Positions 27,157-62,535 of a stretch of DNA of 64,000 nt are shown here, piece by piece. The stretch comes from a virus (taxonomy: Duplodnaviria > Heunggongvirae > Uroviricota > Caudoviricetes): IMG/VR virus record IMGVR_UViG_3300018488_000300. One strand, written 5' to 3'. The translations under genes and the position numbers were made by a program. The notes under the pieces were generated by a model. That model did no database searches, was not told where the DNA came from, and saw only the letters and a list, made by a program, of their open reading frames with translations. How positions within the stretch are numbered: position 1 is the first letter of the stretch; every line of letters starts with the position of its first letter.

Positions 27157-28700
27157 TGAAGTCTCACACGACTGAAGGCGCGTGCTTCTGTAAGCCTTTA
27201 GGACTTACTACATTATCCTGAATATAGCCTGAACTTAGTACTTAAAGAGCTAACTCTTTTAGTACCACATTTAGGTTAATTAGCGAGGATAAAGTACAGG
27301 TACTTCTCTTACTTAATTGAGGAACTTTTGCCTCAATCAGTAACCTATCCCTTTCGGGTAAGGATTTTATAATTTCTCGTATATAATATCGGGCTCCGAT
27401 ATTATAGGCGGCATTTAGGTCGGTATGATACTCTTTTCCTGTCTGGAATGTACAAAGGCTATAGTTGTTCTTATGCCTTTGTACAAATCCGGAGCCATCG
27501 AAGGCCAACACACTGGTATATTTCGGATTTACCCTTGAAATTCGGATTCCTTCTCTATGAGCCTTATGTGTTACCATAGCCTGAACGGCCTGCTTCCTCC
27601 ATAAATGAAGCCGCTGTCTCTTAGAACCTTGCTTCTTACCAACGAAGTGAAAAGCTTTAGATTTTCCCTTCATATCCAGATGTTCAAATATAATTACATC
27701 CACATGGTATTCCAAAGCACATTCTATAATTGCATTTGCTGTCATCTCTGAGATATGTCTGTTTGTATGATTTGTAAATATCCAGGTTTTCCTAGCCTTG
27801 TAATTTCCATGCTGCTGCTGTTTCTTGATACGGTTAATCTGATGATTCAGCCGGTCTTTTTCTATCGGATAGGATAAGACCCTCCTTCCAATGACAGTTC
27901 CGTCTGATAACATCGCTGTACAAGCTGCAGCATTGTTAATTCCAAGGTCTACTGACAGGATGATCCTGGTTTCAATTGGTTCCTCCGACAAAGTAACAGA
28001 TTCTTCATAAGAGAATCGTAAAGAAGTGGATTTACCTTTCAGCTCTAGCGCTGGAGAGCCTTCTTTTAATCCATTACAGTGATGTTTGATATAGTCTATA
28101 TCACTTTTTCTGAATGTTACTGGCAGCCACACCCAATCTTTTTGATGATAAATTTTTATTTCGGCAGAATAATCATTCAACCGGTTATAGGTGTTCTTTT
28201 TATAGAACACAGGCATGAGGTTTCGATTGAGCGTTAGTTTTGGTTTCTTTGTGGATTGATCCGACTTCTCCCAGTTGTTTAAAGCTGACTGATAAGAAGA
28301 GTACGATCCAATTGCAGATTGGATAACAGCTCTTCTTAAATAACTTGGAAACTTATAAAACGCAGAGTCAAAGTCATATTTAGGACTGGGATTTAGAATT
28401 GTCTTGTGGGTAAGTTTTTCTAATGCACCATTCTTCTGCTTCCCTGACAAAGAAACAAGATTCTCCCATTCAGAATCGAGGACCTGTATGAAGAACGTAA
28501 CTGCCTGTTGATATATCTTTACTGTATCGTTAAAAATCTGGTTGTAGTTTTTAATCTTAACTGCATAGGATGAAATGATCTTCATGCAGATCCTCCTTTC
28601 CCTACTAAATATTATAATGCAATTTTTGAATTTGTTAACCAGCTAACTCATCACTAAAGTAACGAGTATGCGCTGGTCTATTAATCAAAAATTCATCTAT
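27157..28700 (-). mobile_element. IS200/IS605-family tnpB-only element, copy A (inserted in the MTTase gene)
   Basis: Ends defined by alignment with the degraded copy at 51614..53125. Subterminal hairpin motif near the right end. No tnpA. Confidence 0.6.
27242..28585 (-). CDS. tnpB: TnpB/OrfB-like protein (RuvC-like nuclease), zinc-finger cysteines absent
   Basis: RuvC triad context ILSVDLGINNAA, FEHLDMKG, HTDLNAAYNIGARYY. The usual CxxC...CxxC segment is replaced by TSVLAFDGSG...SLCTFQTGKEYH. Confidence 0.7.
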   Translation of the reverse strand: MKIISSYAVKIKNYNQIFNDTVKIYQQAVTFFIQVLDSEWENLVSLSGKQKNGALEKLTHKTILNPSPKYDFDSAFYKFPSYLRRAVIQSAIGSYSSYQSALNNWEKSDQSTKKPKLTLNRNLMPVFYKKNTYNRLNDYSAEIKIYHQKDWVWLPVTFRKSDIDYIKHHCNGLKEGSPALELKGKSTSLRFSYEESVTLSEEPIETRIILSVDLGINNAAACTAMLSDGTVIGRRVLSYPIEKDRLNHQINRIKKQQQHGNYKARKTWIFTNHTNRHISEMTANAIIECALEYHVDVIIFEHLDMKGKSKAFHFVGKKQGSKRQRLHLWRKQAVQAMVTHKAHREGIRISRVNPKYTSVLAFDGSGFVQRHKNNYSLCTFQTGKEYHTDLNAAYNIGARYYIREIIKSLPERDRLLIEAKVPQLSKRSTCTLSSLINLNVVLKELAL

Positions 28701-29066: not shown

Positions 29067-30367
29067 TTATAGAAGTGAGAGATTCCTATTTCATCGAGTC
29101 TGCTTTGTAACAGCTGAATTAGTCACAAAGTCTTACAGGCTCTCTATGGGCAATCTGGGTCGTCCCAACCCTTCTTTTATTAAATAGTTACCAATCTTAA
29201 TCCTTCGGCTAAGATATTTATTGCGCTATTCTTGTCTCTGTTATGTCTGGTTCCACATTCAGGGCAAGTCCAGTTTCTAATACTTAAATCCTTAAGTTTC
29301 GGATTCTTATATACACAACTACTGCAGATCTGGCTGGACGAAAAGAAACGGCCCACCTTTACAATTTGCTTTCCATACCATTCGGCTTTATATGTAAGTT
29401 GTCTTACAAACTCAGACCAGGATACATCCGCTATGTTTCTGGATAATTTATGATTTTTCATCATACCGGAGACATTTAAGTCCTCGATGCAGATAATATC
29501 ATAATCTCTAATCATCTGAGTACTAAGCTTATGTAGGAAATCCTTTCGCTTATTCGATATCTTCTCCTGCTGCCTGGCTACTTTAATCCTGGCCTTGTGA
29601 TAACGGCTGCTGCCAATTGTTTTTCTTGACAGAGATCGTTGTAGTCTGGCCAGTTTCTTTAAGTCCTGCTGCAGATATTTCGGATTTTTGATAGATTCAG
29701 TTTCATCTGAAAAAATCAAAAAATCCTTTATCCCTAGATCACAGCCAACCGATTTGCCTGTTTTGGGTATGGATGTCACTTCTGCTTCTGTACAGCACAC
29801 AGATACATAATATTTACCGGAGGCTGTCTGACTTACAGTCGCTGACAAGATTCGGCCAGTAATTGGTCTGGATACTTTCGTCCTTACGTTGCCTAACTTT
29901 GGCAGTTTAATATGCTTTTCCAGAAGAGAAATATTCCCATTCGTGTATTTTGAGGTATAGGAATGCTGGTGCGTCTTCCTCGATTTAAACTTAGGAAATC
30001 CAGCTTTCGGCTGTTCAAAGAAATTCTTGAAGGCAGTATCCAGATTCTTTAAGGAGCTTTGAAGAGTTGTGGAGTCCACATCATTTAGCCACTCATATCC
30101 AGGCTGTTTCTTAAGCTTTGTTAAGTCAGCGCTGCATTTCGTATAGCTCAGTGTAGTTTTATCTTCCTCATAGGTTTTAATACGCTTATCCAGGTAATGA
30201 TTATATACAAATCGGACACATCCGAAAGTTTGAGTCAATATCTGCTTCTGTGATTTATTCGGATAGATGCGGTATTTATAGGACTTTTCCATAGCTGCTC
30301 CTTTCCTAGATTTTACATAGATATTATGGTCCGATTTTTATGATTTGACAACTAAATCGGTTAATTT
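29067..30367 (-). mobile_element. Second, unrelated IS200/IS605-family tnpB-only element (copy B) also inside the MTTase locus
   Basis: tnpB 29180..30292 is flanked by a stop-bounded MTTase fragment on one side and a possible MTTase N-terminal remnant (30368..30475, ...VVLGCQVTDLAIYLKN...) on the other. Boundaries approximate. Confidence 0.45.
29180..30292 (-). CDS. tnpB: TnpB (IS605 OrfB) RNA-guided-nuclease-family protein with intact zinc finger
   Basis: N-terminal OrfB_IS605 region [15 protein letters not shown]..., RuvC motifs GCDLGIKDF and [10 protein letters not shown]-terminal CSSCVYKN...[20 protein letters not shown]. Confidence 0.8.
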
Positions 30368-31220: not shown

Positions 31221-32765
31221 TTAGTCTTCCTTACTAGCTTCAACTACTTCTTTCGCTACCATTGCATTTGAAACTTCATCAGATTCAGCATTCTCAGGAA
31301 GACCAGAAATATTTACGTTCCTGGTTACCTTAGCATCATACGTATTGGCTTTCATAATTTCCGTGATATCCAATCCGGTTGTCTCCTTTACAGATTCAAT
31401 CGTCTTGGCTAACACACCAGGGACATAGGAACCCATGGAAGATACACCCGCTTCGCCATTACCACTGTCGATGATTGTTACCTTATCAATAGTAGACAAT
31501 GGTTCTGCGATCGCTTTTGCCATTTCGGGTAATGCCTGTACAATCATTTCCATCATAGCAGCCTGGCCATACTTCTTCATTGCTTCTGCTTTCTTTTCCA
31601 TGGCCTCAGCTTCGGCAAGGCCTTTCGCCTGAATAGCTGCTGCTTCTGCTTCACCCTTTGCTTTAATACCGGCAGCGCTCTGCTCCATTGCATAACGCTC
31701 CGCTTCCGCCTGTGCTTTCTTGGCAACTGCTTCCTGCTCCTGTTCATAACGCTTCGCTTCCGCCTCCTTCTGACGCTTAGTCAGGTTAGCAGCAGCGGCC
31801 TGCTCGATGGCGTAACGGTCGGCGTCTGCCCTTTTGTTGATTTCCGCTTCCAGTTTCTGCTGCTCAACCTCCACCTGCTGTCGGTTCAATTCTGCATCAC
31901 GTTCTGCTTTTGCGATCTGGGCATTGACGGTACGGATCTGAATTTCTTTATTCTGCTCCTGCTCCTGGATTTTATAGGCCGCGTCTGCTTCTGCTTTTTT
32001 AATGTCCGCCTGTTTCTTCAGTTCTGCCTGTTTGATAAACAAATCGGTATTTTTCTGAGCGATCGCTGTTTCTGCGGCAACACGGGCATCGTTTGCAGCT
32101 TGCTTAGCTTCTGATTCTGCGATTGCCACATCACGATCTGCCTGTGCCTTTGCGATAGAAGCATCTTTTTGAATCTTGGACATATTATCCTGACCTAATG
32201 CCGGGATCAATCCTCTTTCATCTTCAATTTTCTGGATGTTGCAGGAAATAATTTCAATACCCAAATTGTTCATGTCAATCTGAGCTTTCGCCTGAACTTC
32301 ATCACCGAATTTTTTTCGGTCGGTACATAAATCTCTCAGATTTTGTGTACCAATAATTTCACGCATATTGCCCTGAAGCGAATCGGTTAAGGCCATGCAA
32401 ATGTTTTCCTCATTCATATTCAGGAAGTTTTTCATTGCCAACTTAATACCCTCTTCATCGGTACGAATACGCACTTTTGCTACTGCGTCAATATCTACAC
32501 CGATGAAATCCTGGGTTGGGACGAACCCATTGGTTTTGATATCAATGGAGATCTGTTTCAGCAGAATCTCATCCTTGCGTTCCAGGTAAGGAATTTTGAT
32601 GCCTGCACATCCAATCAGGATTCTTGGTTTTCTTTTCAAACCAGAAATAATAAAAGCCTTGTCCGTCGGTGCTTTTACATACCCACTCGCTAAAATCCCA
32701 AGTAATACAATTACAACTAAAACAATCGGTAATATCTGTAAAATCGGTAAAATCAAATCTAACAT
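31221..32765 (-). CDS. floT: Flotillin-like protein (SPFH/band-7 domain, FloT/YuaG type)
   Basis: N-terminal TM segment, SPFH core, then a long Ala/Glu/Gln/Lys-rich coiled-coil (EA repeats) and a C-terminal tail, the same layout as Bacillus FloT (about 510 aa). Confidence 0.75.
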   Translation of the reverse strand: MLDLILPILQILPIVLVVIVLLGILASGYVKAPTDKAFIISGLKRKPRILIGCAGIKIPYLERKDEILLKQISIDIKTNGFVPTQDFIGVDIDAVAKVRIRTDEEGIKLAMKNFLNMNEENICMALTDSLQGNMREIIGTQNLRDLCTDRKKFGDEVQAKAQIDMNNLGIEIISCNIQKIEDERGLIPALGQDNMSKIQKDASIAKAQADRDVAIAESEAKQAANDARVAAETAIAQKNTDLFIKQAELKKQADIKKAEADAAYKIQEQEQNKEIQIRTVNAQIAKAERDAELNRQQVEVEQQKLEAEINKRADADRYAIEQAAAANLTKRQKEAEAKRYEQEQEAVAKKAQAEAERYAMEQSAAGIKAKGEAEAAAIQAKGLAEAEAMEKKAEAMKKYGQAAMMEMIVQALPEMAKAIAEPLSTIDKVTIIDSGNGEAGVSSMGSYVPGVLAKTIESVKETTGLDITEIMKANTYDAKVTRNVNISGLPENAESDEVSNAMVAKEVVEASKED

Positions 32766-38860: not shown

Positions 38861-40027
38861 CTATTCTTTCACACTAGCTTTAAAATTATAAATTGGTCTA
38901 ATTACATTTATTATTTCTACTGTATCCCTTATGTTTTCTACAATCTCCTCCTTATTTTCTTTTGCTTGACTTCTTGACATCAAACGGCCTGCTCCATGTG
39001 GCGCAGAATAATTCCAATCCTCATTTCCTTTTCCCATACAAAGTAAAGAACCGTCTCGCATATTCATTGGAATTAAAATTTTTTCTCCTTTCCTTGCTGA
39101 TACGGCACCTTTTCTAAGAATCATACGCTCTGTGTCAATATAGTTGTGGACTGTCTCAAATTCTTCTACTGAGTGAAGTTTCATTTCCTTTAAAATTGTA
39201 TTTGCAATAGCTTTCCGATTCCAGAAGGCATATTCCTGCACAATTTCCATATCATGGATATAATCAGCTAACAACTCATTTTCACAGTATGCTAGTTCAT
39301 ATGGAACAGATGGTAATTTACTTAGATCAGGTCTTTCCCACTTCCATGCTGCTAATTGATTGCGAAGTTCTTTTTCCCTTCCACTTTTTTTCATTTCTTC
39401 GCTGAATTCCTGCCTAGCCTTCTTTTCAAGTTCTTTGTAATAGGTGCCAACACAATTTAATTCTTCATAGGCCCTATTTTGATAGTACTCAGCAACATCT
39501 TTACCAAGCCTACGGCTTCCAGTATGAACAACCAGATACAAGTTACCATCCTCATCTTTGTCTACTTCAATGAAATGATTTCCTCCTCCAAGTGTTCCAA
39601 TACTGCAAGCAGCAATGTCTTCACTTACTTTGCAATTATTTTTTCCTACGCAGCGAAGGCGTTCAATATCAAATCGTCTTGCATATTGAAGTTGATTGAA
39701 TTTGTCATGTATACTTCCACCTGAAGGAATGTTCTTACGAATTATGCTATCTAATTTTGGTAATTCAATCCATTTTTCTTTGAGTCTCACTGTACGCATA
39801 CCACAACCTATATCAACGCCAACTAAATTGGGAATAACTTTATCTGTAATGGTCATTGTTGTACCTATCACACATCCAGCTCCAGCATGCGCATCCGGCA
39901 TAATCCTTATTATTGAGTCTTGTAAACTCTCTTGATTTAGCAGCGAAATTAATTGCCTTATACAATCCTCATCTACATCGTCCGCAAAGATTTTGCACTT
40001 ATTATATTTTCCTTTTAACTCGAACAC
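38861..40027 (-). CDS. rtcB: RNA ligase RtcB (3'-phosphate/5'-OH RNA ligase)
   Basis: MPDAHAGAGCVIG, GGGNHFIE, HTGSRRLG and SAPHGAGR are the RtcB metal/GTP-binding signature blocks. 388 aa. Confidence 0.85.
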   Translation of the reverse strand: MFELKGKYNKCKIFADDVDEDCIRQLISLLNQESLQDSIIRIMPDAHAGAGCVIGTTMTITDKVIPNLVGVDIGCGMRTVRLKEKWIELPKLDSIIRKNIPSGGSIHDKFNQLQYARRFDIERLRCVGKNNCKVSEDIAACSIGTLGGGNHFIEVDKDEDGNLYLVVHTGSRRLGKDVAEYYQNRAYEELNCVGTYYKELEKKARQEFSEEMKKSGREKELRNQLAAWKWERPDLSKLPSVPYELAYCENELLADYIHDMEIVQEYAFWNRKAIANTILKEMKLHSVEEFETVHNYIDTERMILRKGAVSARKGEKILIPMNMRDGSLLCMGKGNEDWNYSAPHGAGRLMSRSQAKENKEEIVENIRDTVEIINVIRPIYNFKASVKE

Positions 40028-48119: not shown

Positions 48120-48147
48120 CAAAACAAAAAGAGAGGTTTCCCTCTCT
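48120..48147 (-). terminator. Intrinsic terminator after hpf
   Basis: agagaggtttccctctct hairpin with a T-rich tract. Confidence 0.5.
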
Positions 48148-48665
48148 TACATATTTGCTGCAAGCAGCCCGTATCCAGCCTCTTTCCTCCTATATACGAC
48201 ACCTACCCTACCATCCATCACATTCATAAATAAATGAAAGTCATGATCTAAAGCCTCCAGTTCCTCAACCGCCTCTTCAGGAGTCATCATCTGTAAATCA
48301 AACTGTTTTTCTTTCATAATAAGCGGTTTGATTTCTGCTTCTGGCTCTGTTTCTAAAAGCATAACTGGCATACGTTTCTTATCTAATTTCTTTTCTTTCT
48401 GTTTTCTAAGCTGTCTGTTGAGAACTTCTTCTACCAAATCAATTGCTTCATAAAGATCCTTACTTCTGCGTTCTGCTCGGATTTCCTTATTCTTTCCAGT
48501 TGGAATGGCTACCTCAATGATTTGATCATCTTTTACAGTTCGGACAACTACCCTTACCGGCGTGTTTTCCTTTAAATATTTATCACATTTAGAAAGCTTT
48601 TCGGTAATAGCCTCCCTCATACCATCCGTAATTGTAACAGTTTTTCCAATAATAGTAAGTTTCAT
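48147..48665 (-). CDS. hpf: Ribosome hibernation promoting factor, long form (RaiA/YfiA family)
   Basis: MKLTIIGKTVTITDGMREAITEKLSKCDKYL matches the HPF N-terminal consensus. 172 aa with the C-terminal dimerisation extension typical of Firmicutes. Confidence 0.8.
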   Translation of the reverse strand: MKLTIIGKTVTITDGMREAITEKLSKCDKYLKENTPVRVVVRTVKDDQIIEVAIPTGKNKEIRAERRSKDLYEAIDLVEEVLNRQLRKQKEKKLDKKRMPVMLLETEPEAEIKPLIMKEKQFDLQMMTPEEAVEELEALDHDFHLFMNVMDGRVGVVYRRKEAGYGLLAANM

Positions 48666-49652: not shown

Positions 49653-50975
49653 TTAAACATTATAGACTCCTTTCATCTGGAATAATGACTTTTTGCTATT
49701 CTTTTTCTTATAGTAACTCTGAACCCTTACACTTTGGGCAGCTGTTTTAATTTTTTTGTATGTTTCTATGATTACATTAACGCAGATTAGGATAGATGTA
49801 CCGCCAATACTCAAAACACCTATTCCAAAGATATTACACACCAAAGATGCTCCCAGAACAATGCACAACATCAAACCAGTCCCTAGCACCATCATTTCAA
49901 ACGCATTTGTATGTAAAAATTCTGATGTTGCTTTTCCTGGCCTGATTCCTGGAATTGTAGCACCTTGAGCTTTCAATCTTTGTGCAATTTCAGTGGCATT
50001 AAATGCTATGTCTAAATAAAAATTTGCAAAGAAGTAGGCAAGCAGTATATATACAATGCAACCTAATGTATATTTCAGACTACCTGTTATAAACCAATTA
50101 TTGGGTGATAGGTATTTTGAAATTGTCAATAGTGTTTGATTGGAGCTGAAAGTTGCTGCAATGTTAACCATGCTTATAATACTTCCAGTAAAAATGACCG
50201 GCATCACATTACAGATATTCAATGATATGGGCAAATCTTTTCCTTGCTCATTATTTATGCTCTTTCTCGAAAATCTTATCTGTATTCTTTTTTCAGATAA
50301 ATTCAAATAGATACATCCAGCCAGGAAAGTCATGAATACCATTATTGCTAATGTTAATTTAAAAACAACTGTAACTGGTTTACTATTATACGAAAAACGT
50401 TCATAAATAACAAATAAATCGTTTGGGAATGTTGATAGTATATTAAAGAGCAGAATATAGGATATTCCATTACCCAGTTCCAGTTTTGTTATCTTCTCTC
50501 CCATAATAATCAAAATCGATGCTCCTAATGTCCATATAGAAGTTGCAATAAGGACCATCCACCACGTATATGGGTTCAGCAACCCTCTTGAGCCAAAGCC
50601 TATGGCCATAAAAAGTGATTGAATGAAACTAATTATGATACCCGTTATATTTGTTATTTTTTGAATCTTTTCTTGTCCTGTTTTTCCGTCTTTGCTTAAA
50701 TCTTCTAGCTTTGGGATTATGACTGTCATTAACTGGACGATGATAGAGGCAGTGATATATGGGCTTATGCTTAGTGCAAAAAGTGACATCTTAGAAAATG
50801 AATTACCAGTAATCATATTTAGGAATTGGAATCCAGAGCCAGAAATAATCGATTTCATATAATCGCCATTAATACCTGGTATCGGTATCAGGCTACCGAT
50901 ACGAACAAATATGATGAACCCTAAAATCAACAACAGCTTATTCCTTGTCTCTTTATTTTTCATTAATATAATCAT
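49653..50975 (-). CDS. secY: SecY-family preprotein translocase subunit (divergent, stand-alone paralog)
   Basis: RIGSLIPIPGIN (TM1), ALSISPYITASIIVQLM (TM2 plug region), GATIPGIRPGKATSEF (C4 loop). Ten predicted TM segments. Not embedded in a ribosomal protein operon. Confidence 0.7.
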   Translation of the reverse strand: MIILMKNKETRNKLLLILGFIIFVRIGSLIPIPGINGDYMKSIISGSGFQFLNMITGNSFSKMSLFALSISPYITASIIVQLMTVIIPKLEDLSKDGKTGQEKIQKITNITGIIISFIQSLFMAIGFGSRGLLNPYTWWMVLIATSIWTLGASILIIMGEKITKLELGNGISYILLFNILSTFPNDLFVIYERFSYNSKPVTVVFKLTLAIMVFMTFLAGCIYLNLSEKRIQIRFSRKSINNEQGKDLPISLNICNVMPVIFTGSIISMVNIAATFSSNQTLLTISKYLSPNNWFITGSLKYTLGCIVYILLAYFFANFYLDIAFNATEIAQRLKAQGATIPGIRPGKATSEFLHTNAFEMMVLGTGLMLCIVLGASLVCNIFGIGVLSIGGTSILICVNVIIETYKKIKTAAQSVRVQSYYKKKNSKKSLFQMKGVYNV

Positions 50976-53153: not shown

Positions 53154-54467
53154 TTACTCTTCAGCTATTAAATCCTGATTATCTTCCTGCTGTATATTTT
53201 CAAATCCCGGTCCATAATTTTCATTCGAAGTTTCTTCTGGTATATAAATTGGTGTACCTGGTCCTATCTCCACTTCTTCATATGGTTCCGATTCCACCAT
53301 ATTCTGTGTATCTGTTTCTGTAGATTGTGATGTTTCTGATTCTATTGTCGATTGTACATCTATCGTTTCAGGAACACTATTTGATTCAATTACTTCTGTT
53401 TCCTTTGGAATCGCTTTATTTGATTGTTTTGTATCTCCACCTAAGCGTTTATTGTCAATTTTCTTACTAATGGAAGACACTTGCCCAGAAGGAACATAAC
53501 CTTCGGTACCATATAAAAATTCATGTAATTTGGAGACGTTTGTTTCAAAATTGTCTGGGAAAACAAAATCCTGTTTATACACATTTTTCTCAATTACATC
53601 AAATGGAAAACCACCTGTTTTTATCAATTTATATTTCGTGATATTCATTGCTGCTGCAAGCACATTATTTGTATCAATTGAGGATGAGGTCATTGGGAAA
53701 ACCGTAACAATGATATTATTCAGTGTCGCCCAATCCGAGTGTTTTGCTTTTTCTAATACTGCTGCAAGAACAGTTCTCTGTCTCTCTGTCCGCTTATAAT
53801 CATTTCCTACCGTATACCGGATTCTGGAATACGCAACTGCTTGAATTCCATCCAAATGCTGCATCCCTGTTTCATGTATCTGATAGGATCCTATTCCTGT
53901 GCTATTCACTGTTTCTGTTATATATCCATTGATATATTTCAATTCGTCTTTTGTGATTTCAATATCAACGCCGCCTAAAATATTAATTGCTGTTGCAACA
54001 GCTTTCCAATTTACAGCTACATAGTCATCAATTTCCAAATCAAGGTTTTCATTTAGTACCTCTACGGCCTTCTTAGGTCCGCCAATTGCATATGCTTCAT
54101 TTACTTTTCGGTATCGATTATCACCAGTTTTTAAGCATGTATCCCTATATACAGAAATCAAATTAATATCACCAGTTTTATTGTTAATAGATGCAAGGAT
54201 AATGACATCTGAATTTGCACCAGACAATCCGTCTGTATCTCTTGTATCCAGTCCGAATAAAGCAACTGTCCAATTATCCTTTAATGTTGATATAACATCA
54301 TTTGATATATTGGGATTTGTCATTTCCTTAACTTCTTCCTTATCAGTTCTTTGCATCAATCCCATTGTCTGGTCTACTTTTTTATATCCTATAAACACAA
54401 CAAGTACTAAAATTGTTATCAATGCTAAAATTACAGCGGCACTTATTTCCTCAATTTTTTTCTTCAT
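53154..54467 (-). CDS. LytR-CpsA-Psr (LCP) family cell-envelope protein
   Basis: N-terminal TM anchor, then WTVALFGLDTRDTDGLSGANSDVIILASINNKTGDINLISVYRDT (LCP core, RSD..ILA....LLSIPRDT) and an acidic S/T/E-rich tail. Confidence 0.75.
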   Translation of the reverse strand: MKKKIEEISAAVILALITILVLVVFIGYKKVDQTMGLMQRTDKEEVKEMTNPNISNDVISTLKDNWTVALFGLDTRDTDGLSGANSDVIILASINNKTGDINLISVYRDTCLKTGDNRYRKVNEAYAIGGPKKAVEVLNENLDLEIDDYVAVNWKAVATAINILGGVDIEITKDELKYINGYITETVNSTGIGSYQIHETGMQHLDGIQAVAYSRIRYTVGNDYKRTERQRTVLAAVLEKAKHSDWATLNNIIVTVFPMTSSSIDTNNVLAAAMNITKYKLIKTGGFPFDVIEKNVYKQDFVFPDNFETNVSKLHEFLYGTEGYVPSGQVSSISKKIDNKRLGGDTKQSNKAIPKETEVIESNSVPETIDVQSTIESETSQSTETDTQNMVESEPYEEVEIGPGTPIYIPEETSNENYGPGFENIQQEDNQDLIAEE

Positions 54468-54569: not shown

Positions 54570-55787
54570 CTATTTATTAGTCAGTTCTCCTTTTGATTTT
54601 CCCATCATTTCTAACCTTAAATTTTCAGATGATTCAATACTATCTACAATCTTCTGTCCTTGCGTCACAAGCGTATCAAATTCTGCTAAAGTCTGCTTCA
54701 TTTGCGGTAATGCTTTCTGCTTGTAGGTATTAATAGACTCAAACGCTTCTAATGCATCACTGATAGCCAATTTAAGTGTATCCATATCAATATTAGTTTC
54801 AATTGCTTGTTTTTGTATTTCAGTGCCTTGAGTCTTCAACATTTTTGATGTCGTAGCAATCATATCGTTTGTTGTATTATTAACTATATTGATTTTGGAC
54901 ATAACAAGATTTTGGTTATATAAAGATCCTGCAACAATAACGGCCGTTCTTAATGCAGACACAGTTACAAACTTAGCTCTTTCAACGGAACGAATCAGTT
55001 CATAATTATTTCTTTTTGTTGTCTCCATTGCAATGATACCCTGTTGATTCACTGCCAGCTTCTGACTAAAATCAATCATCCTTTGTCTTAATGAAAAAAG
55101 GATTTCTTCTTCAATAAATTTAATCTTTTCATTATCGCCATTCTGCGCACGCATATTGTTTATCTGCATGGTTAAATAGTCATCCAATTCCTGACCAAGT
55201 TTTCTTTTCTCGATTAACTGTTTTGAGATATTTCTCATTGATGTTGTCTCAATTTCAAGTGTTGTGTTATCATCCTTAAGAATGGTTGATCCCTCTTCCA
55301 ATGCTTTGATTATGTTTCCGATTACAATATCTGCTGTTTCATATTTTTTGAAATATTTCTTTATGGGATTTAAAAAATTTCCCAAAAATCCCTTTTTTGT
55401 GAAATCTATCCCAGCCGGATTTAATTCAGCCACTTCTGTTGATAGTTTATCAAGGCCATTTGCTACAGCCTGGCTATCTCCACCCATCCGATTTAATTCA
55501 CTGATCCGCTTTCCCAAAATCGCATTTTTTTCTTCTGACTGTTCCATTAAGTCTGATCCAAATGTCTCAATTGCTTTAATTAATTGCTGACGATTAGAAA
55601 AATCATATGCATCAACCTGAAGAATCTGGTCTGCTTTTTCTCTTGCCACATCAGAAATCACAATTTCTCTTTCGTCTGATAGTTTTAACTCTTTTTCCAA
55701 ATTTTCTTTTATATCCTCTACCTTTGGTAAATCCAGGCTAAAGTTTTCCATTTCATATTCTCCTTTTCCTTTACTAACTAAAATCAC
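54570..55787 (-). CDS. TelA-like (toxic anion resistance) all-alpha protein, tentative
   Basis: About 400-aa helical protein whose length and composition resemble the TelA/KlaA family. No diagnostic motif confirmed. Confidence 0.35.
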   Translation of the reverse strand: MILVSKGKGEYEMENFSLDLPKVEDIKENLEKELKLSDEREIVISDVAREKADQILQVDAYDFSNRQQLIKAIETFGSDLMEQSEEKNAILGKRISELNRMGGDSQAVANGLDKLSTEVAELNPAGIDFTKKGFLGNFLNPIKKYFKKYETADIVIGNIIKALEEGSTILKDDNTTLEIETTSMRNISKQLIEKRKLGQELDDYLTMQINNMRAQNGDNEKIKFIEEEILFSLRQRMIDFSQKLAVNQQGIIAMETTKRNNYELIRSVERAKFVTVSALRTAVIVAGSLYNQNLVMSKINIVNNTTNDMIATTSKMLKTQGTEIQKQAIETNIDMDTLKLAISDALEAFESINTYKQKALPQMKQTLAEFDTLVTQGQKIVDSIESSENLRLEMMGKSKGELTNK

Positions 55788-57789: not shown

Positions 57790-59325
57790 ATGGCCTATTC
57801 GACACACGTGTAGAATGAGGAGTAAGACCACATCATTACACCGTGCCAAAATATTGTAGACTCTAGAATCATTATCGTGTGAACTACTCGTGACTAAAGT
57901 CATAAGCTTCTAAGCCACTGCAGGTACAGTTACCTTAGACTGGGTTCATGCCAGCAATACTGCTACTTTCGTTACACAGTTACTTTTATCGGACTTCCTA
58001 GGTTTTGATGAGAAATCTGTTTGCCTCGACCTATCTGTTTAAAGTATAGTCTCATGATATTATAAGCGCCTACCGCATCGGCATTCCATATATGTCCGGC
58101 TTCTTTATATAAGCCTCTTTTTATTCGATTCGACTTATTTGCATATCGTTTACTAACTTCTTTTGATAATGGACTACATTGACTGGAATAGGATTCTTTT
58201 ATCCTTGTTAAGCGAATCCCATGCTGCTTTAATTTATATTCCAACATCAAATATATTTCACGAAATGGCCAGGCATGAAACACCTGATTTGTTTTAGAAC
58301 CCAAACTATTGTTGTCCCTGATATGTTTTATATCACTGATAATTACTGTATAGATATGATGTTCCAAACAATAATCAACAATATATTTTGTTGATTTGTG
58401 GAGGACATCTTTAATACTGTTGTGCTTCTTTTTATAGAGCTTCAGAACGCGTTTGGAAGATTTTGGATACTTAGTTCCTTTTGACACTTGCTGACTGTCT
58501 GATATGGACTGATAGTGTGCAATTTTTTTGTTAAAGTAATGCGAAACTTCCAAGTAGCTATTTCCAACAATAAAACTGTTACCCAAACTATCATAGCAGG
58601 TCATCAGGTTCTTGATTCCTAAGTCAATGGACAGATAATGGCTATTATCCGGAAGCCAGCCAACCTCTGGAATCTCATAGATAACAATCATCAGTAGTTC
58701 TCCATTTACAGGTGGATATAGCTTGATCTGTTTGATGTTTTCCATGTCCTGGAAAACTTTATTTTCCAGGAATAGATAGTTATCATGGACATCAAACCGT
58801 TCTGCCATATGTACCTTTAAATTCTTTGGAATACTTAGCCGGATCTGTGCAGATTTCTTATTATGTACAATCCCATTCTGCATATAAGTAATTGGAATCC
58901 CTTCCTGCTTGAATTTAGGTGGTTTTGGAGACTTGATTCCACCTGTTTTTAATAGCTTATAGTAGCTTTTAAAAGCCTGATCAATCTGGTTGCAGATTTC
59001 CTGAGCTGTTTGGGATGGAAGCGACTTAAACCAGATATTATCCTTTAGCCTTGATTTCTGATTGTACCAATTTGGATATGGAATGCCCAAAGTCTTATAA
59101 TTTCGTTTCTCATAATTGCATACATTCCATAACTTACTGGCTGCATAATTCATATGGTTCAAAATATTTGCTTGGTGTTCAGATACGTGGATCGTTGTTC
59201 TTTTTGATAATAGCATATTTCACCTCCATATATATGATGATGAAAAAGATGATGTTGTCAACCAAATATCTATAATTAATACATAACGAATTCATCTCAT
59301 GACTTAAGTCACGAGGATTCTTCGT
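57790..59325 (-). mobile_element. Third distinct IS200/IS605-family tnpB-only element (copy D)
   Basis: tnpB is flanked by subterminal hairpins carrying the motif catgact-N-agtca(c/t)g (59290-59310 and 57860-57890) that also occurs at the right ends of copies A and C. Boundaries approximate. Confidence 0.45.
57972..59216 (-). CDS. tnpB: TnpB/OrfB-like protein, zinc-finger cysteines absent
   Basis: RuvC motifs LSIDLGIKNL, VIISDIK and GHIWNADAVGAYNI. Only one Cys (SSQCSP) where the CxxC pairs are expected. Confidence 0.7.
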   Translation of the reverse strand: MLLSKRTTIHVSEHQANILNHMNYAASKLWNVCNYEKRNYKTLGIPYPNWYNQKSRLKDNIWFKSLPSQTAQEICNQIDQAFKSYYKLLKTGGIKSPKPPKFKQEGIPITYMQNGIVHNKKSAQIRLSIPKNLKVHMAERFDVHDNYLFLENKVFQDMENIKQIKLYPPVNGELLMIVIYEIPEVGWLPDNSHYLSIDLGIKNLMTCYDSLGNSFIVGNSYLEVSHYFNKKIAHYQSISDSQQVSKGTKYPKSSKRVLKLYKKKHNSIKDVLHKSTKYIVDYCLEHHIYTVIISDIKHIRDNNSLGSKTNQVFHAWPFREIYLMLEYKLKQHGIRLTRIKESYSSQCSPLSKEVSKRYANKSNRIKRGLYKEAGHIWNADAVGAYNIMRLYFKQIGRGKQISHQNLGSPIKVTV

Positions 59326-59726: not shown

Positions 59727-59800
59727 GGTGACCGACGGGAGTTGAACCCGCAAAATGGCGGAGCCACAATCCGCTGCTGTACCAATTGAGCCACGGCCAC
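59727..59800 (-). tRNA. tRNA-His (anticodon GUG) with encoded G-1
   Basis: Anticodon arm GCGGA-TTGTGGC-TCCGC, 8-bp acceptor with an extra 5' G and C73, T-arm GCGGG-TTCAACT-CCCGT. Confidence 0.65.
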
Positions 59801-59802
59801 AG

Positions 59803-59874
59803 TTACGATGATGGGAATCGAACCCATATTGTAGGTTTAGGAAACCTATGTTCTATCCGTTGAACTACACCGTA
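59803..59874 (-). tRNA. tRNA-Arg (anticodon CCU)
   Basis: Acceptor TACGGTG/CATCGTA, D-arm GTTC-AACGGATA-GAAC, anticodon arm TAGGT-TTCCTAA-ACCTA, T-arm ATGGG-TTCGATT-CCCAT. Confidence 0.65.
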
Positions 59875-59875
59875 A

Positions 59876-59949
59876 TATCAGTAGCTGGAATCGAACCAGC
59901 GGCCTCCATGGTATGAGTCTGGCGCTCTTGCCTGCTGAGCTATACTGAC
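59876..59949 (-). tRNA. tRNA-Met-like (anticodon CAU) with weak anticodon stem
   Basis: Acceptor GTCAGTA/TACTGAT, D-arm GCTC-AGCAGGCAAG-AGC, loop CTCATAC but only 3 of 5 stem pairs, T-arm GCTGG-TTCGATT-CCAGC. Confidence 0.4.
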
Positions 59950-59960
59950 ATGAATGAATA

Positions 59961-60010
59961 AATTTAGCTCCGGTTATGGGCCGGATGCTCTAACCAACTA
60001 TATGGTTTAA
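59961..60010 (-). pseudogene. 5' half of a tRNA (acceptor-D-anticodon arms, anticodon CAU) with no T-arm
   Basis: Reverse complement reads ...ATAGTTGGTTAGAGC-A-TCCGG-CCCATAA-CCGGA-GCTAAATT, then runs directly into the 5' end of the next tRNA. No T-arm follows. Confidence 0.35.
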
Positions 60011-60081
60011 AGCAAATGAAGGGAATCGAACCCTCAACTCTGCTATGGCAAAGCAGCATTTTTCCGTTAAACTACATCTGC
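60011..60081 (-). tRNA. tRNA-Gly (anticodon GCC)
   Basis: Acceptor GCAGATG/CATTTGC with U73, anticodon arm CTGCT-TTGCCAT-AGCAG, T-arm GAGGG-TTCGATT-CCCTT. Confidence 0.6.
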
Positions 60082-60239
60082 ATGTGTTCCTGTCCGGCCT
60101 TTCACCAGTTCTCGCAAATCGCTCTCTACTTTTTATTCATGAAAAAGTGATGTATATAATCCTATGGTCATGACTCCATATTATTATTTCACATAGGAAC
60201 ATATTAATTTTCTAAAATAATAAAATTTATAATTCAGAA

Positions 60240-60313
60240 TAGTGGATACCAGGCTTGAACCGGTGACCTTTGGATTATCAGACCAACGCTCTAACCAACT
60301 GAGCTAATCCACT
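60240..60313 (-). tRNA. tRNA-Ile (anticodon GAU)
   Basis: Perfect acceptor AGTGGAT/ATCCACT, D-arm GCTC-AGTTGGTTAG-AGC, anticodon arm TTGGT-CTGATAA-TCCAA, T-arm ACCGG-TTCAAGC-CTGGT. Confidence 0.7.
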
Positions 60314-60547
60314 ATAGCCGGTAAAGCTCCGAAAAGAACCCGGATTGCTATATATTACCATCTTAACATGTACACACCTACTTCGTAGTTGACAGCGTTA
60401 TATAGACTTATGTTTGTTTGGTGTGTTTTACACGGAGCTTATATACACTAATGGTTTCACTTATCTTTTCCCAGCCTTCTGACTGCCAGTACTTGCACAG
60501 AGGTTCGTTTACTCCCAGCTCATTAGCTGCCATAGGCATTAGCGTAA

Positions 60548-60619
60548 TACCCGCTACAGGACTTGAACCTGTAGCTTCTTCCTTGTAAGGGAAGCACTCT
60601 CCCATTGAGTTAAGCGGGC
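60548..60619 (-). tRNA. tRNA-Val (anticodon UAC)
   Basis: Acceptor GCCCGCT/AGCGGGT, anticodon arm CTTCC-CTTACAA-GGAAG, T-arm ACAGG-TTCAAGT-CCTGT. Confidence 0.65.
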
Positions 60620-60670
60620 GTATTAGTATAATCCATATCATTGATACTTTGTTAATGATATGGGATTGAA

Positions 60671-60744
60671 TCGGAATGGTGAGATCTGAACTCACAACCT
60701 CTCGGTTCCAAGCCAATTGCTCTTCCAAATTGAGCACATCCTGC
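60671..60744 (-). tRNA. tRNA-Pro (anticodon UGG), acceptor has an A2.C71 mismatch
   Basis: D-arm GCTC-AATTTGGAAG-AGC, anticodon loop CTTGGAA, T-arm GTGAG-TTCAGAT-CTCAC. Confidence 0.5.
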
Positions 60745-60749
60745 ATTTC

Positions 60750-61454
60750 AAATTTAATGTCTTCTAAAATCTTTCAAATCACTTTGTGTATAAGGCAAAC
60801 CATATGATTTACACCATTTTCTTATAGCTGTATCGCTTAATTGAAACTCTTCTGCTATTTCTATAAAACTTTTTTGTTTCAGCAACACTTCCAGTTAACT
60901 TTTAATCGGTTTTTTTGATTTTCTTTTTAAATCGCATTCAACACATCGATTGGCCCGAATTGAAATATTCTTTCCACAATCGATGCATATTTTTTTGTAT
61001 TAGTCATATTATAATTTCTTTTCCTTATTGGATATGGTCTATTGTATTTTATATAACGTCCTGTATTTATTCCCTGTATCATTTCTTCGCTAATATCCCA
61101 TTTTTTTGCTATTCTTTTTTGCGTCATATTTGTCATTTCTAAATCGTTCACTATTCCAATAAATGTTTCTTTATTCAAATGTGATTGACCACCAAAACTC
61201 TCATTATAACCATAAAAAAAGAGTCAAAATAATCAATCCAATATATTTCTCTTTCATCTAATTGTTTTTCTTCACATTCCTCAATTATTTCAAATTTAAA
61301 CTTTTCAATTCCATACAATCGTAAATCTTTATATTATATTGATTTATAAGAATGATCTATCTTGCTTTTATATCTATTTTTATGTTTATTTATTCTATTG
61401 TTTATATTTATTGATTGTCCAATATAAGACTTTCCATTTTCGATATTTGTAATT
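60750..61454 (-). pseudogene. GIY-YIG homing endonuclease gene inside tRNA array 2, disrupted by an in-frame TAA and frameshifts (one at a T7 run)
   Basis: RBS AAAGGAGGG-N5-ATG, then MIGIYKITNIENGKSYIGQSININNRINKHKNRYKSKIDHSYKSI-TAA-YKDLRLYGIEKFKFEIIEECEEKQLDEREIYWIDYFDSFF. After a shift at tcttttttt come YGYNESFGGQSHLNKETFIGIV...NAI (listed ORF 60927..61178). A further frame holds a C-terminal HTH, SFIEIAEEFQLSDTAIRKWCKSYGLPY. Confidence 0.6.
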
Positions 61455-61579
61455 TTGTAAATACCTATCATATTCCCTCCTTTTTTTGTCTTTGAATAGC
61501 TATTACCAATTTAAACCATCTAAGCTAAATACCATATGTCTCTCTAACTGAGTTAATCCAACATATAATCTTCAAGCAG

Positions 61580-61653
61580 TGGAACCAGAGGGATTTGAAC
61601 CCTCAACCCTTTGCTTGCAAGGCAAATGCTCTCCCATTTAGAGCTATGATCCC
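61580..61653 (-). tRNA. tRNA-Ala (anticodon UGC)
   Basis: Acceptor GGGATCA/TGGTTCC with G3.U70, D-arm GCTC-TAAATGGGAG-AGC, anticodon arm TTTGC-CTTGCAA-GCAAA, T-arm GAGGG-TTCAAAT-CCCTC. Confidence 0.7.
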
Positions 61654-61657
61654 AAAA

Positions 61658-61744
61658 CAATCCAGGCCGGAATCGAACCGGCACTACTGACAGACAAGCC
61701 AGTGTACTTATATATTAAGTCGACTTCCATTATACTACTGGATT
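61658..61744 (-). tRNA. Atypical 86-nt tRNA-like gene (perfect acceptor and T-arm, unassignable D/anticodon region)
   Basis: Acceptor AATCCAG/CTGGATT and T-arm GCCGG-TTCGATT-CCGGC are perfect. The 55 nt between them (TAGTATAATGGAAGTCGACTTAATATATAAGTACACTGGCTTGTCTGTCAGTAGT) contain a D-loop-like TAATGG and a possible CTTAATA loop but no clean cloverleaf. Confidence 0.3.
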
Positions 61745-61746
61745 AG

Positions 61747-61820
61747 TCGGAGCAGTGAGATTCGAACTCACACGTTCTTCCTTCCAAGGGAAGCTGCCTA
61801 CCATTTAGCTGCACACTCCG
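61747..61820 (-). tRNA. tRNA-Pro-like (anticodon UGG), second copy, D-stem A.A mismatch
   Basis: Anticodon arm CTTCC-CTTGGAA-GGAAG, T-arm GTGAG-TTCGAAT-CTCAC, acceptor CGGAGTG/TGCTCCG. Confidence 0.5.
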
Positions 61821-61824
61821 TAAA

Positions 61825-61896
61825 TATCCACAAAGAGAATCGAACTCTTATCATCGATTTAGAAGACCGATGCTCTATCCATTGAGCTATGTGGAT
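61825..61896 (-). tRNA. tRNA-Arg (anticodon UCU)
   Basis: Fully canonical: ATCCACA-TA-GCTC-AATGGATA-GAGC-A-TCGGT-CTTCTAA-ATCGA...AAGAG-TTCGATT-CTCTT-TGTGGAT-A. Confidence 0.75.
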
Positions 61897-61900
61897 GTAA

Positions 61901-61972
61901 TGCTGGATGTTGGATTTGAACCAACGACTCCTGGTATATCAGACCAGTGCTCTACCACTGAACTAATCCAGC
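61901..61972 (-). tRNA. tRNA-Ile (anticodon GAU), second copy
   Basis: GCTGGAT-TA-GTTC-AGTGGTAG-AGC...CTGGT-CTGATAT-ACCAG...GTTGG-TTCAAAT-CCAAC-ATCCAGC-A. Confidence 0.7.
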
Positions 61973-61976
61973 AAAG

Positions 61977-62049
<73 letters not shown>

Positions 62050-62055
62050 ATAAAA

Positions 62056-62128
62056 CGACCTATATGGGATTCGAACCCATGTCTCATGCGTGACAGGCAT
62101 GTGATTTATCCAATTAATCTAATAAGCC
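62056..62128 (-). tRNA. tRNA-Asp (anticodon GUC)
   Basis: D-arm GATT-AATTGGATA-AATC, anticodon arm CATGC-CTGTCAC-GCATG, T-arm ATGGG-TTCGAAT-CCCAT, G73. Confidence 0.65.
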
Positions 62129-62132
62129 AAAG

Positions 62133-62209
62133 TGGGATGAGATGGAGTCGAACCATCACCATCTGGTTTTTCAGACCAGTGCTGCGGACCGCAAGTAAGC
62201 TATCATCCC
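62133..62209 (-). tRNA. tRNA-Phe-like (anticodon GAA) with enlarged 21-nt D region
   Basis: Perfect acceptor GGGATGA/TCATCCC, anticodon arm CTGGT-CTGAAAA-ACCAG, T-arm GATGG-TTCGACT-CCATC. D region GCTTACTTGCGGTCCGCAGCA can form an internal extra hairpin. Confidence 0.4.
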
Positions 62210-62213
62210 AAAA

Positions 62214-62285
62214 TATCTCCAGTTGGAATCGAACCAACAACCTTTACGATGTCAACGTAATGTTCTTCCACTGAACTATGGAGAT
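62214..62285 (-). tRNA. tRNA-Val (anticodon GAC)
   Basis: Canonical: ATCTCCA-TA-GTTC-AGTGGAAG-AAC-A-TTACG-TTGACAT-CGTAA...GTTGG-TTCGATT-CCAAC-TGGAGAT-A. Confidence 0.7.
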
Positions 62286-62289
62286 ATGG

Positions 62290-62363
62290 CTGGAAGAGTG
62301 GGACTTGAACCCACGACCCACCGCTTAACAGGCGGTTGCTCTAACCAACTGAGCTATCAACCA
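62290..62363 (-). tRNA. tRNA-Asn (anticodon GUU) with U4.U69 and U5.U68 acceptor mismatches
   Basis: Anticodon arm ACCGC-CTGTTAA-GCGGT, D-arm GCTC-AGTTGGTTAG-AGC, T-arm GTGGG-TTCAAGT-CCCAC. Acceptor TGGTTGA/TCTTCCA has two mismatches. Confidence 0.5.
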
Positions 62364-62384
62364 GTAACAATTATTTAAAGCAAA

Positions 62385-62458
62385 CGACTTAGATGGGATT
62401 CGAACCCACGATCTCTGCCGTGACAGGGCAGCGCTTTAAGCCTCTAAGCTACTAAGCC
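62385..62458 (-). tRNA. tRNA-Asp (anticodon GUC), second copy
   Basis: GGCTTAG-TA-GCTT-AGAGGCTTA-AAGC...CTGCC-CTGTCAC-GGCAG...GTGGG-TTCGAAT-CCCAT-CTAAGTC-G. Confidence 0.65.
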
Positions 62459-62463
62459 ATAAG

Positions 62464-62535
62464 CTCCAAGGACAGGACTCGAACCTGCAACATCCCGGTT
62501 AACAGCCGGACTCTCTACCATTGAGCTACCAAGGA
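62464..62535 (-). tRNA. tRNA-Asn (anticodon GUU), second copy, same U4.U69/U5.U68 mismatches
   Basis: TCCTTGG-TA-GCTC-AATGGTAG-AGAG...TCCGG-CTGTTAA-CCGGG...GCAGG-TTCGAGT-CCTGT-CCTTGGA-G. Positions 2, 3 and 7 differ from the other Asn gene with compensating changes, while positions 4-5 stay U.U. Confidence 0.5.

Follow-up and report, generated by a model that had tools for sequence, protein, structure and literature searches.

Tandem U·U oppositions in the acceptor stems of asparagine tRNA genes of a phage-like mobile element

Why should two diverged asparagine transfer RNA (tRNA-Asn) genes standing in one array both carry two consecutive U·U oppositions in the middle of the acceptor stem? The question is raised by positions 62,290-62,535 of a stretch of 64,000 nucleotides (the window, which here always means that whole stretch) from IMG/VR virus record IMGVR_UViG_3300018488_000300, assigned to the Caudoviricetes. 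A preliminary description had noticed there two tRNA-Asn(GUU) genes with U4·U69 and U5·U68, considered the oppositions to be selected and not errors, and proposed as possible reasons an identity element or resistance to an Asn-specific tRNase. The arrangement, called UU/UU hereafter, was confirmed by the sequence, by the Rfam alignment and by the ARAGORN drawing, and a database look-up found the same UU/UU at 4:69/5:68 in tRNA-Asn of other phage-type arrays. The explanation favoured here, to which a probability of about 40% is given, is that the tandem U·U would remove the base-pair read-out used by a host effector that inspects acceptor stems, with translation left intact.

Two diverged tRNA-Asn genes with the same four uridines

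The two genes and the nucleotides in question lie as follows.

62290-62363 (-): tRNA-Asn(GUU) copy 1, 74 nt including G73 (ARAGORN; Rfam RF00005, 63.9 bits)
62464-62535 (-): tRNA-Asn(GUU) copy 2, 72 nt including G73 (ARAGORN; Rfam RF00005, 54.2 bits)
62287-62289 (-): genome-encoded 3' CCA of copy 1 (read from sequence)
62360 and 62359 (-): U4 and U5 of copy 1 (read from sequence)
62294 and 62295 (-): U69 and U68 of copy 1 (read from sequence)
62532 and 62531 (-): U4 and U5 of copy 2 (read from sequence)
62468 and 62469 (-): U69 and U68 of copy 2 (read from sequence)

The acceptor strands are 5' UGGUUGA ... UCUUCCA-G73 in copy 1 and 5' UCCUUGG ... CCUUGGA-G73 in copy 2, and ARAGORN draws '(((..((' for both. 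Copy 1 reads in full UGGUUGA-UA-GCUC-AGUUGGUUA-GAGC-A-ACCGC-CUGUUAA-GCGGU, continued by GGGUC-GUGGG-UUCAAGU-CCCAC-UCUUCCA-G and the encoded CCA, one base beyond which a tRNA-Val gene begins. Copy 2, which is without encoded CCA, reads UCCUUGG-UA-GCUC-AAUGGUA-GAGA-G-UCCGG-CUGUUAA-CCGGG, continued by AUGUU-GCAGG-UUCGAGU-CCUGU-CCUUGGA-G. The copies are identical at 49 of 74 positions (about 66%). In the acceptor stem, pairs 1:72 (U-A) and 6:67 (G-C) are the same in both, and pairs 2:71, 3:70 and 7:66 are G-C, G-C and A-U in copy 1 and C-G, C-G and G-C in copy 2; both sides of these three pairs differ between the copies with pairing kept, which bears out the co-variation stated in the preliminary description.

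Both genes align end to end with the covariance model RF00005 (model positions 1-71 of 71, Infernal/Rfam), at 63.9 and 54.2 bits against a gathering threshold of 29 bits, and in copy 1 the only positions that Rfam marks as non-canonical ('vv') are 4, 5, 68 and 69. The D, anticodon and T stems are intact, with the exception of a G10·A25 mismatch in the D stem of copy 2, which is private to the window (its relatives in L533, L535 and L546 have G10-C25); the anticodon stem of copy 2 is closed by U27·G43. The Levitt pair, read from the sequences, co-varies: copy 1 has G15-C48 and copy 2 A15-U48. Both copies have the anticodon GUU in a CUGUUAA loop (U33, A37) and the discriminator G73, that is, the published Asn identity set, and keep U1-A72, the GatCAB determinant of the indirect pathway. 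Since their Rfam scores fall within the range of the neighbouring tRNAs, their stems are intact and the Levitt pair co-varies, copies 1 and 2 look like functional, diverged asparagine tRNA genes.

Compared with the canonical bacterial tRNA-Asn(GUU) of Escherichia coli and Bacillus subtilis, the window copies share the CUGUUAA loop with GUU, G73 and U1-A72, together with the type-I cloverleaf, the 5-nt variable loop, the UAGCUCA start of the D arm and the GGUUCRAGUCC T arm. They differ in having U·U/U·U at 4:69/5:68 instead of Watson-Crick or G·U pairs, in the UGG start of copy 1 where UCC is usual, and in their place in a 19-gene mobile-element array and not in a chromosomal operon. No tandem acceptor mismatch was found in the window's other approximately 30 tRNAs in the Rfam register; one in tRNA-Pro was an artefact of ARAGORN's shifted coordinates and is gone in that register. 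Microbacterium phages have genes, annotated as tRNA-Lys, to which the body of copy 1 (62301-62357, minus strand) shows 93-95% identity, and copy 1 and the tRNA-Lys(UUU) of the window (44576-44649, minus strand) have the same T arm; this hints at a shift of the anticodon between tRNAs for Lys and Asn.

Recurrence in tRNA arrays and covariation around the tandem

Viral sequences were scanned with patterns of different stringency. When only the D arm and the anticodon loop were fixed, 201 unique viral tRNA-Asn were obtained, 189 with perfect acceptor stems and 2 with UU/UU at 4-5. In a second set of scans the pattern specified the 5' strand (UGGUU or UCCUU) together with positions 70-73, with 68 and 69 free; among unique sequences of the UGGUU...NNCCA-G class, 12 have U68-U69, 22 have both 4:69 and 5:68 paired, and the only one mismatched at just one of these pairs has its tandem U·U at 5-6. 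The UGGUU class is bimodal, UU/UU versus fully paired, with almost no intermediates. A third scan, in which only the anticodon arm UCCGG/CCGGA was fixed, gave tandem mismatches in 4 of 87 unique tRNA-Asn, all four being UU/UU at 4-5, and added two flank types, GGGUUCG/CGUUCCC and GGUUUGU/ACUUACC.

Altogether, 29 distinct tRNA-Asn sequences with UU/UU at exactly 4:69/5:68 were collected from 58 loci, with flanks of four forms (UGG/CCA, UCC/GGA, GGG/CCC and GGU/ACC) and Rfam scores of 55-68 bits for the homologues. Almost all of these loci are dense tRNA arrays on viral or phage-like contigs, and most homologues are on IMG/VR contigs; 55 of the 58 loci hold at least 4 tRNAs (median 13), and a normally paired tRNA-Asn is also present in only one of the 58. 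The metagenome contigs L533, L535 and L546, the last being part of a 271,782-bp contig, share the window's gene order and both UU-type copies. The copy 1 homologue in L533 and L535 has a G49·A65 mismatch and its four U's are unchanged. When all window open reading frames (ORFs) of at least 100 amino acids were compared by tblastn with the loci up to L531, no protein was shared preferentially with UU-type loci, and since the flanking proteins of the other UU-type loci in that range are essentially unrelated to the window's, UU/UU spans unrelated elements. In the body phylogeny, UU-type tRNA bodies are interspersed with paired-type bodies in no clear clade; because of this, and because tRNA bodies are too short and too conserved, single and multiple origins are not separable.

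The independent evidence that the state is maintained comes from the covariation around the U's and from samples collected blind to the acceptor stem. In an alignment of 24 UU-type sequences all acceptor pairs except 4:69 and 5:68 are 100% standard, and two-sided changes occur in five of them: 1:72 is U-A or G-C, 2:71 is G-C or C-G, as is 3:70 apart from one U-A, 6:67 is G-C, C-G or U-A, and 7:66 is G-C, A-U or U-A. Over the whole cloverleaf 89.5% of cells are paired and 12 pairs show double-sided changes, 4:69 and 5:68 being never paired; the observed covariation was reached by none of 500 shuffles. U1-A72 and G73 are kept in 22 of the 24.

For the isotype comparison the acceptor-blind samples were pooled and every tRNA in the same loci was read by one method. 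UU/UU at 4-5 was found in 6 of 240 unique viral tRNA-Asn and in 3 of 1342 other tRNAs (odds ratio 11, p=6e-4). Since the background is thus about 2.5% for tRNA-Asn and about 0.2% for other viral tRNAs, two UU/UU copies in one array are far beyond chance. The ratio of tandem to single U·U at 4/5 is 6 to 1 in tRNA-Asn and 3 to 7 in other tRNAs. Furthermore, approximately 270 normally paired viral tRNA-Asn show almost every combination at 4:69 and 5:68, and tandem G·A was never seen in the viral tRNA acceptor stems surveyed.

Outside viral collections the state is rare. The UGGUU...UUCCA-G form, scanned for in one genome of each of 185,579 species, gave 5 matches, all on contigs of metagenome-assembled genomes and in arrays of 2-19 tRNAs, two of which contain ROOL RNA. 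The UCCUU...UUGGA-G form, scanned for in 241 million metagenome records, gave 17 matches, all in arrays of 4-27 tRNAs. No ribosomal RNA (rRNA) stood beside the 13 UU-type arrays checked. Because the chromosomal tRNA-Asn of any common bacterium would give far more matches, UU/UU tRNA-Asn is regarded as characteristic of the tRNA arrays of mobile elements (phage-type arrays) and as all but absent from ordinary contexts in bacterial genomes. ROOL RNA (246-257 bits; L378 1769-2386, plus strand, and L379 2423-3012, minus strand) and transfer-messenger RNA genes (L242 1129-1533, plus strand, and L132 493-908, minus strand) also lie inside UU-type arrays.

In the INPHARED collection the best matches to the commonest UU-type tRNA-Asn are at most 87% identical; the tandem is absent in the three matches inspected, two of which are paired at 4:69 and 5:68. 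The third, the tRNA-Asn of Gordonia phage Woes (L531, KU998240.1 20495-20567), has a single U4·U69 in the acceptor UGGUCCG/CGGUCCA. In the search the match of Woes was also returned for about 25 records of related Gordonia phages.

The opinion of the preliminary description that the U's are no errors is supported by their recurrence, by the surrounding covariation, by the enrichment in tRNA-Asn and by the confinement to mobile-element arrays. The U·U state looks kept up rather than accidental.

Explanations for the tandem

The favoured explanation is built on analogy with known proteins. FaRel2, a toxSAS toxin of the gut Firmicute Coprobacillus, selects tRNAs via acceptor pairs 1, 2, 4 and 5, and the surface that reads the acceptor differs from one toxSAS to another (PMC11559606). 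CdiA-CT EC869 cuts tRNA-Asn and tRNA-Gln in the acceptor end, at 71/72 (PMC9071432), and tRNA-targeting defences are bypassed by phage tRNAs (PMC11555353). The steps that we infer are that the tandem U·U would alter the shape of the mid-acceptor helix and its base-pair read-out; that a host factor inspecting acceptor pairs 4 and 5 would no longer recognise the phage tRNA-Asn; and that asparaginyl-tRNA synthetase (AsnRS), or non-discriminating aspartyl-tRNA synthetase with GatCAB (ND-AspRS/GatCAB), as well as EF-Tu and the ribosome, would still accept the UU/UU tRNA. Candidate factors would be a defence-associated toxin that inactivates tRNAs, such as a toxSAS, a nucleotidyltransferase or an acetyltransferase, or else a nuclease acting at the acceptor end. 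TilS also discriminates tRNAs by 4:69 and 5:68. Because FaRel2 reads acceptor pairs 1, 2, 4 and 5, resistance to a tRNA-inactivating enzyme, close to what the preliminary description had proposed, is plausible as the purpose of UU/UU. A bolder form, in which UU/UU would be a dedicated escape signature, in the tRNA-Asn and sometimes the tRNA-His of large gut and rumen Firmicutes phages, against a widespread, undescribed immunity effector that would inspect the acceptor stem and inactivate these tRNAs, is rather unlikely.

Several points weigh against the escape from such an effector. No tRNA-Asn-specific toxin reading pairs 4 and 5 was identified here, and to our knowledge none is known that is both specific for tRNA-Asn and reads these pairs. 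A difference between phage and host tRNA-Asn at 4:69/5:68 is presumed on indirect grounds, both scanned UU/UU classes being almost missing from cellular genome contexts. No virion genes were found in the 64-kb window by Pfam, PHROGs or tblastn, and we infer the phage identity of what is otherwise a large, uncultured, phage-like mobile element. The state is, moreover, enriched in tRNA-Asn yet not strictly Asn-specific: UU/UU at 4-5 also occurs in 4 of 62 unique tRNA-His (L148, L248, L268 and L343) and in single genes of tRNA-Cys (L130), tRNA-Trp (L266) and tRNA-Thr (L480), other phage tRNAs, of several isotypes, have tandem U·U at 2-3, 5-6 and 6-7, and among the acceptor mismatches of phage tRNAs none is as common as U·U, with 102 of about 260 mismatched cells. 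The patterns that retrieved most of the 29 sequences demanded the U's, and the invariance of those sequences there is by construction; L369 is the body of L275 with U69 changed to G, a clear single-step repair. Finally, in the Turner model the repair of one U·U gains 0.3-1.0 kcal/mol, one repair even losing 0.7, and CC/CC, AA/AA and CU/UC are about 2 kcal/mol harsher than UU/UU, so a purely thermodynamic plateau could explain part of its persistence. As an observation apart, the tRNA-His of L268 and L343 have an identical body and differ by a swap of G1-C72 for C1-G72.

Many of these points are those on which near-neutral tolerance would rest, the explanation that survives best beside the favoured one and which is possible, though somewhat unlikely. 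According to it, UU/UU has no dedicated function and is the least damaging tandem, helix-compatible and placed centrally in a 7-bp stem that stacks on the T stem; under relaxed constraint in phage tRNAs the state would recur, and would linger as single-step repair gains almost nothing. By the nearest-neighbour model UU/UU is about 4.5 kcal/mol less stable than two Watson-Crick pairs, and that the tolerated tandem is U·U would follow from the other pyrimidine or A·A tandems being about 2 kcal/mol worse. The frequency of U·U at several stem positions and in several isotypes, the interspersed tRNA bodies, the repaired relative L369, and the other mismatches borne by these tRNAs (G49·A65 in L533 and L535, G10·A25 in window copy 2) are all in keeping with it. 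However, tandem G·A, rated at least as stable as UU/UU by the Turner model, is never seen, and the energies do not account for why UU/UU is enriched at a single position of tRNA-Asn, why tandem exceeds single U·U there, or why the UGGUU class is bimodal. Tolerance alone fits poorly, moreover, with an 11-fold enrichment at exactly 4-5, with a tandem-to-single ratio which is reversed in other tRNAs, with the persistence of UU/UU while 2:71, 3:70, 6:67 and 7:66 were turned over by double substitutions, and with an array in which both independent copies are UU/UU, a normal tRNA-Asn being found in only 1 of 58 loci.

An aminoacylation signal was the other reason offered by the preliminary description, and it is improbable. 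UU/UU would then be a determinant or anti-determinant for AsnRS, ND-AspRS/GatCAB or a phage synthetase, for example by blocking mischarging by aspartyl- or lysyl-tRNA synthetase or by tuning the indirect Asn pathway. The enrichment in tRNA-Asn speaks for such a role, as does the interleaving of tRNA-Asn and tRNA-Asp genes in the window and related arrays, and class II synthetases do approach the acceptor helix. Published Asn identity consists of the anticodon, G73 and, for GatCAB, U1-A72 (PMC9976931), and the retention of U1-A72 and G73, which matter to GatCAB and AsnRS, in 22 of the 24 aligned sequences speaks for the idea as well. However, since these known elements are retained and 4:69 and 5:68 take almost any value in normally paired viral tRNA-Asn, so that host enzymes do not read them, an identity role is unlikely. 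Two UU-type sequences, furthermore, carry G1-C72, a GatCAB anti-determinant, the same UU/UU is found in tRNA-His, tRNA-Cys, tRNA-Trp and tRNA-Thr, and the scanned window ORFs yielded no synthetase gene.

It is quite improbable that UU/UU is a copied host feature, that is, that the tRNA-Asn of some bacterial lineage has it and phages acquired the gene. Phage tRNAs are frequently host-derived, and the cellular collections were scanned for two flank classes only; against this stand the mere 5 matches among 185,579 species genomes, all in arrays on metagenome-assembled contigs, two with ROOL RNA and none beside rRNA, and the 17 matches among 241 million metagenome records, every one in an array.

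A conformational switch, which is very improbable, concerns the UGGUU...UUCCA-GCCA class alone and is retained only as a minor rival there. A weak stem would let the 5' end pair with A72-G73-C74-C75-A76, and the hidden CCA end would regulate charging or flag the tRNA for quality control by the CCA enzyme. The minimum free energy structure given by RNAfold for copy 1 with CCA is indeed a slipped 6-bp helix, UGGUUG/CAGCCA (U1-G6 with C71-A76), at -26.3 kcal/mol versus -22.6 for the cloverleaf, the latter evaluated without CCA, and that of the L242 type is likewise a slipped helix, of 5 bp. At least 5 bp of slipped helix are possible in all UGGUU...UUCCA-GCCA tRNAs. Such folding, however, ignores tertiary contacts and modifications, and the switch is impossible in copy 2 and in the UCC, GGG and GGU classes, all with UU/UU. 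The slipped helix was rejected as the functional acceptor stem, as it would bury the CCA end and leave five unpaired bases after the T stem, and as a shared register, since copy 2 and the other three flank classes offer no counterpart. The canonical register is supported because 6:67 and 7:66 co-vary among homologues, canonically so; an alternative, fully paired register, which the preliminary description had kept in view, was thus discarded.

That the genes are decaying pseudogenes or products of sequencing or assembly errors is hardly credible, in spite of the lower score of copy 2 (54.2 bits) and its additional G10·A25, given scores well above the threshold, other stems that are intact and co-varying, UU/UU kept across 29 distinct sequences, and four U's that recur in the independent assemblies L533, L535 and L546 and in dozens of unrelated contigs.

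The element, known systems and meaning

The surroundings of the two genes bear on how the favoured explanation compares with known systems. The other features of the window are the following.

59727-62535 (-): array with both Asn copies, about 19 tRNA genes (His ... Asp-Val-Asn-Asp-Asn; ARAGORN, Rfam)
43661-45066: other tRNA array, second of two in the window
38861-40027 (-): RtcB-family RNA ligase, tRNA repair (Pfam PF01139, E=2e-53)
2189-3394 (-): P-loop kinase plus metallophosphoesterase, with a polynucleotide kinase/phosphatase-like RNA-end-healing architecture (Pfam AAA_33 and Metallophos)
49653-50975 (-): SecY
48147-48665 (-): S30AE ribosome hibernation factor
54570-55787 (-): TelA
53154-54467 (-): LytR-CpsA-Psr
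31221-32765 (-): SPFH/flotillin-like protein
27242-28585, 29180-30292 and 57972-59216 (-): three TnpB/OrfB_IS605-like ORFs (Cas12f-like TNB domain)

The window is AT-rich (31-38% guanine + cytosine), nearly all of its genes are on the minus strand, and its two arrays, at 43.6-45.1 kb and at 59.7-62.5 kb, together comprise no fewer than 32 tRNA genes. The gene order of the array at 59727-62535 is repeated in L533, L535 and L546, and tRNA-Asn and tRNA-Asp genes are interleaved in it as in the related arrays. RtcB and the kinase/phosphoesterase make up an end-healing and sealing pair for RNA, a hint that cleaved tRNAs are repaired by the element. Also encoded are a RecD2-like helicase, a sigma factor, a DNA methylase and an ADP-ribosylglycohydrolase, a transglycosylase has phage-family matches, and several large ORFs are without any match; the outcome of the Pfam, PHROGs and tblastn searches would fit a phage or another large element. 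The choline-binding-repeat protein in the window and the binning of related contigs with Lachnospiraceae, Ruminococcus and Fimenecus point to a gut Firmicutes setting. SecY, S30AE, TelA, LytR and the flotillin-like protein are cellular-type genes, unusual in a phage-like element, and one of the TnpB-like ORFs directly adjoins the tRNA array.

Some further tRNA genes of the window, all on the minus strand, are unusual in themselves. Two were missed by ARAGORN: a 77-nt tRNA at 62133-62209 (Rfam 58.4 bits), whose anticodon is GAA (Phe) and whose D arm is aberrant, and a weak tRNA-like sequence at 60671-60743 (Rfam 40.8 bits), which has one acceptor mismatch and a UGG-like anticodon loop. Three are over-long, namely Ile(UAU) of 89 nt at 61657-61745, Gln(UUG) of 85-87 nt at 44818-44904 and Lys(UUU) of 82 nt at 44490-44571, each carrying an insert that follows the anticodon arm or lies near it and may be an intron-like segment or else a long variable arm. 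In addition, a tRNA-Leu with an AAG anticodon (A34) lies at 43893-43975, and the same is found in L377, L378, L379, L205 and L538-L540; unmodified-type A34 outside tRNA-Arg(ACG) is unusual in bacteria.

Phage tRNAs that bypass defences include the tRNA-Tyr of T5 and SP15 against retron-Eco7 and a phage tRNA-Lys against PrrC (PMC11555353), and PARIS is another case of tRNA-targeting defence, to which PMC11559606 refers. Like these phages, the element of the window has extra isoacceptors in an array, altered at a protein-readable site, together with the RNA-repair genes RtcB and kinase/phosphatase. Unlike in them, where the tRNA is over-supplied or changed in the anticodon loop or stem, the change here is in the acceptor helix, and the UU/UU tRNA-Asn is known from sequence. 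FaRel2 and CdiA-CT EC869, a gut-Firmicute and an enterobacterial protein, choose tRNAs via this part of the helix, and tRNA-Asn is a natural target of the latter, an acceptor-end nuclease; FaRel2, however, targets tRNA-Gly as well as tRNA-Thr, but not tRNA-Asn, and CdiA-CT EC869 reads G73 and a 1:72 pair that is weak (PMC9071432), both of which are retained in UU/UU tRNAs. The link of either protein to UU/UU is by analogy only. Organellar tRNAs are a third comparison: U·U is, of the mismatches in tRNA stems, the one most frequently reported and tolerated, and the matches of one literature search were all papers on mitochondrial genomes. Their mismatches, however, are scattered in mutationally degraded sets, whereas here the tandem is position-specific and enriched in one isotype, in stems otherwise perfect and co-varying. 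Some stem mismatches of mitochondrial tRNAs are corrected by editing.

No description of UU/UU in phage tRNA-Asn was found in the full-text literature; it is apparently undescribed, phage-encoded tRNAs themselves being already known. Phage tRNA arrays are increasingly viewed as countermeasures to tRNA-targeting immunity, and the documented escapes concern the anticodon loop or over-supply. A conserved, Asn-enriched distortion at pairs which toxins inspect would make the acceptor stem a different battleground, and escape from an acceptor-reading effector would predict an undiscovered, tRNA-Asn-directed effector in gut Firmicutes. Phages of this kind can be searched for by the signature N3-UU-N2 ... 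N2-UU-N3-G with a GUU anticodon. If UU/UU is neutral, it shows an acceptor-stem irregularity that translation tolerates, useful for the design of orthogonal tRNAs; if it is a dedicated escape signature, remodelling of the acceptor stem would be a second general route of counter-defence by phage tRNAs, beside changes of the anticodon loop.

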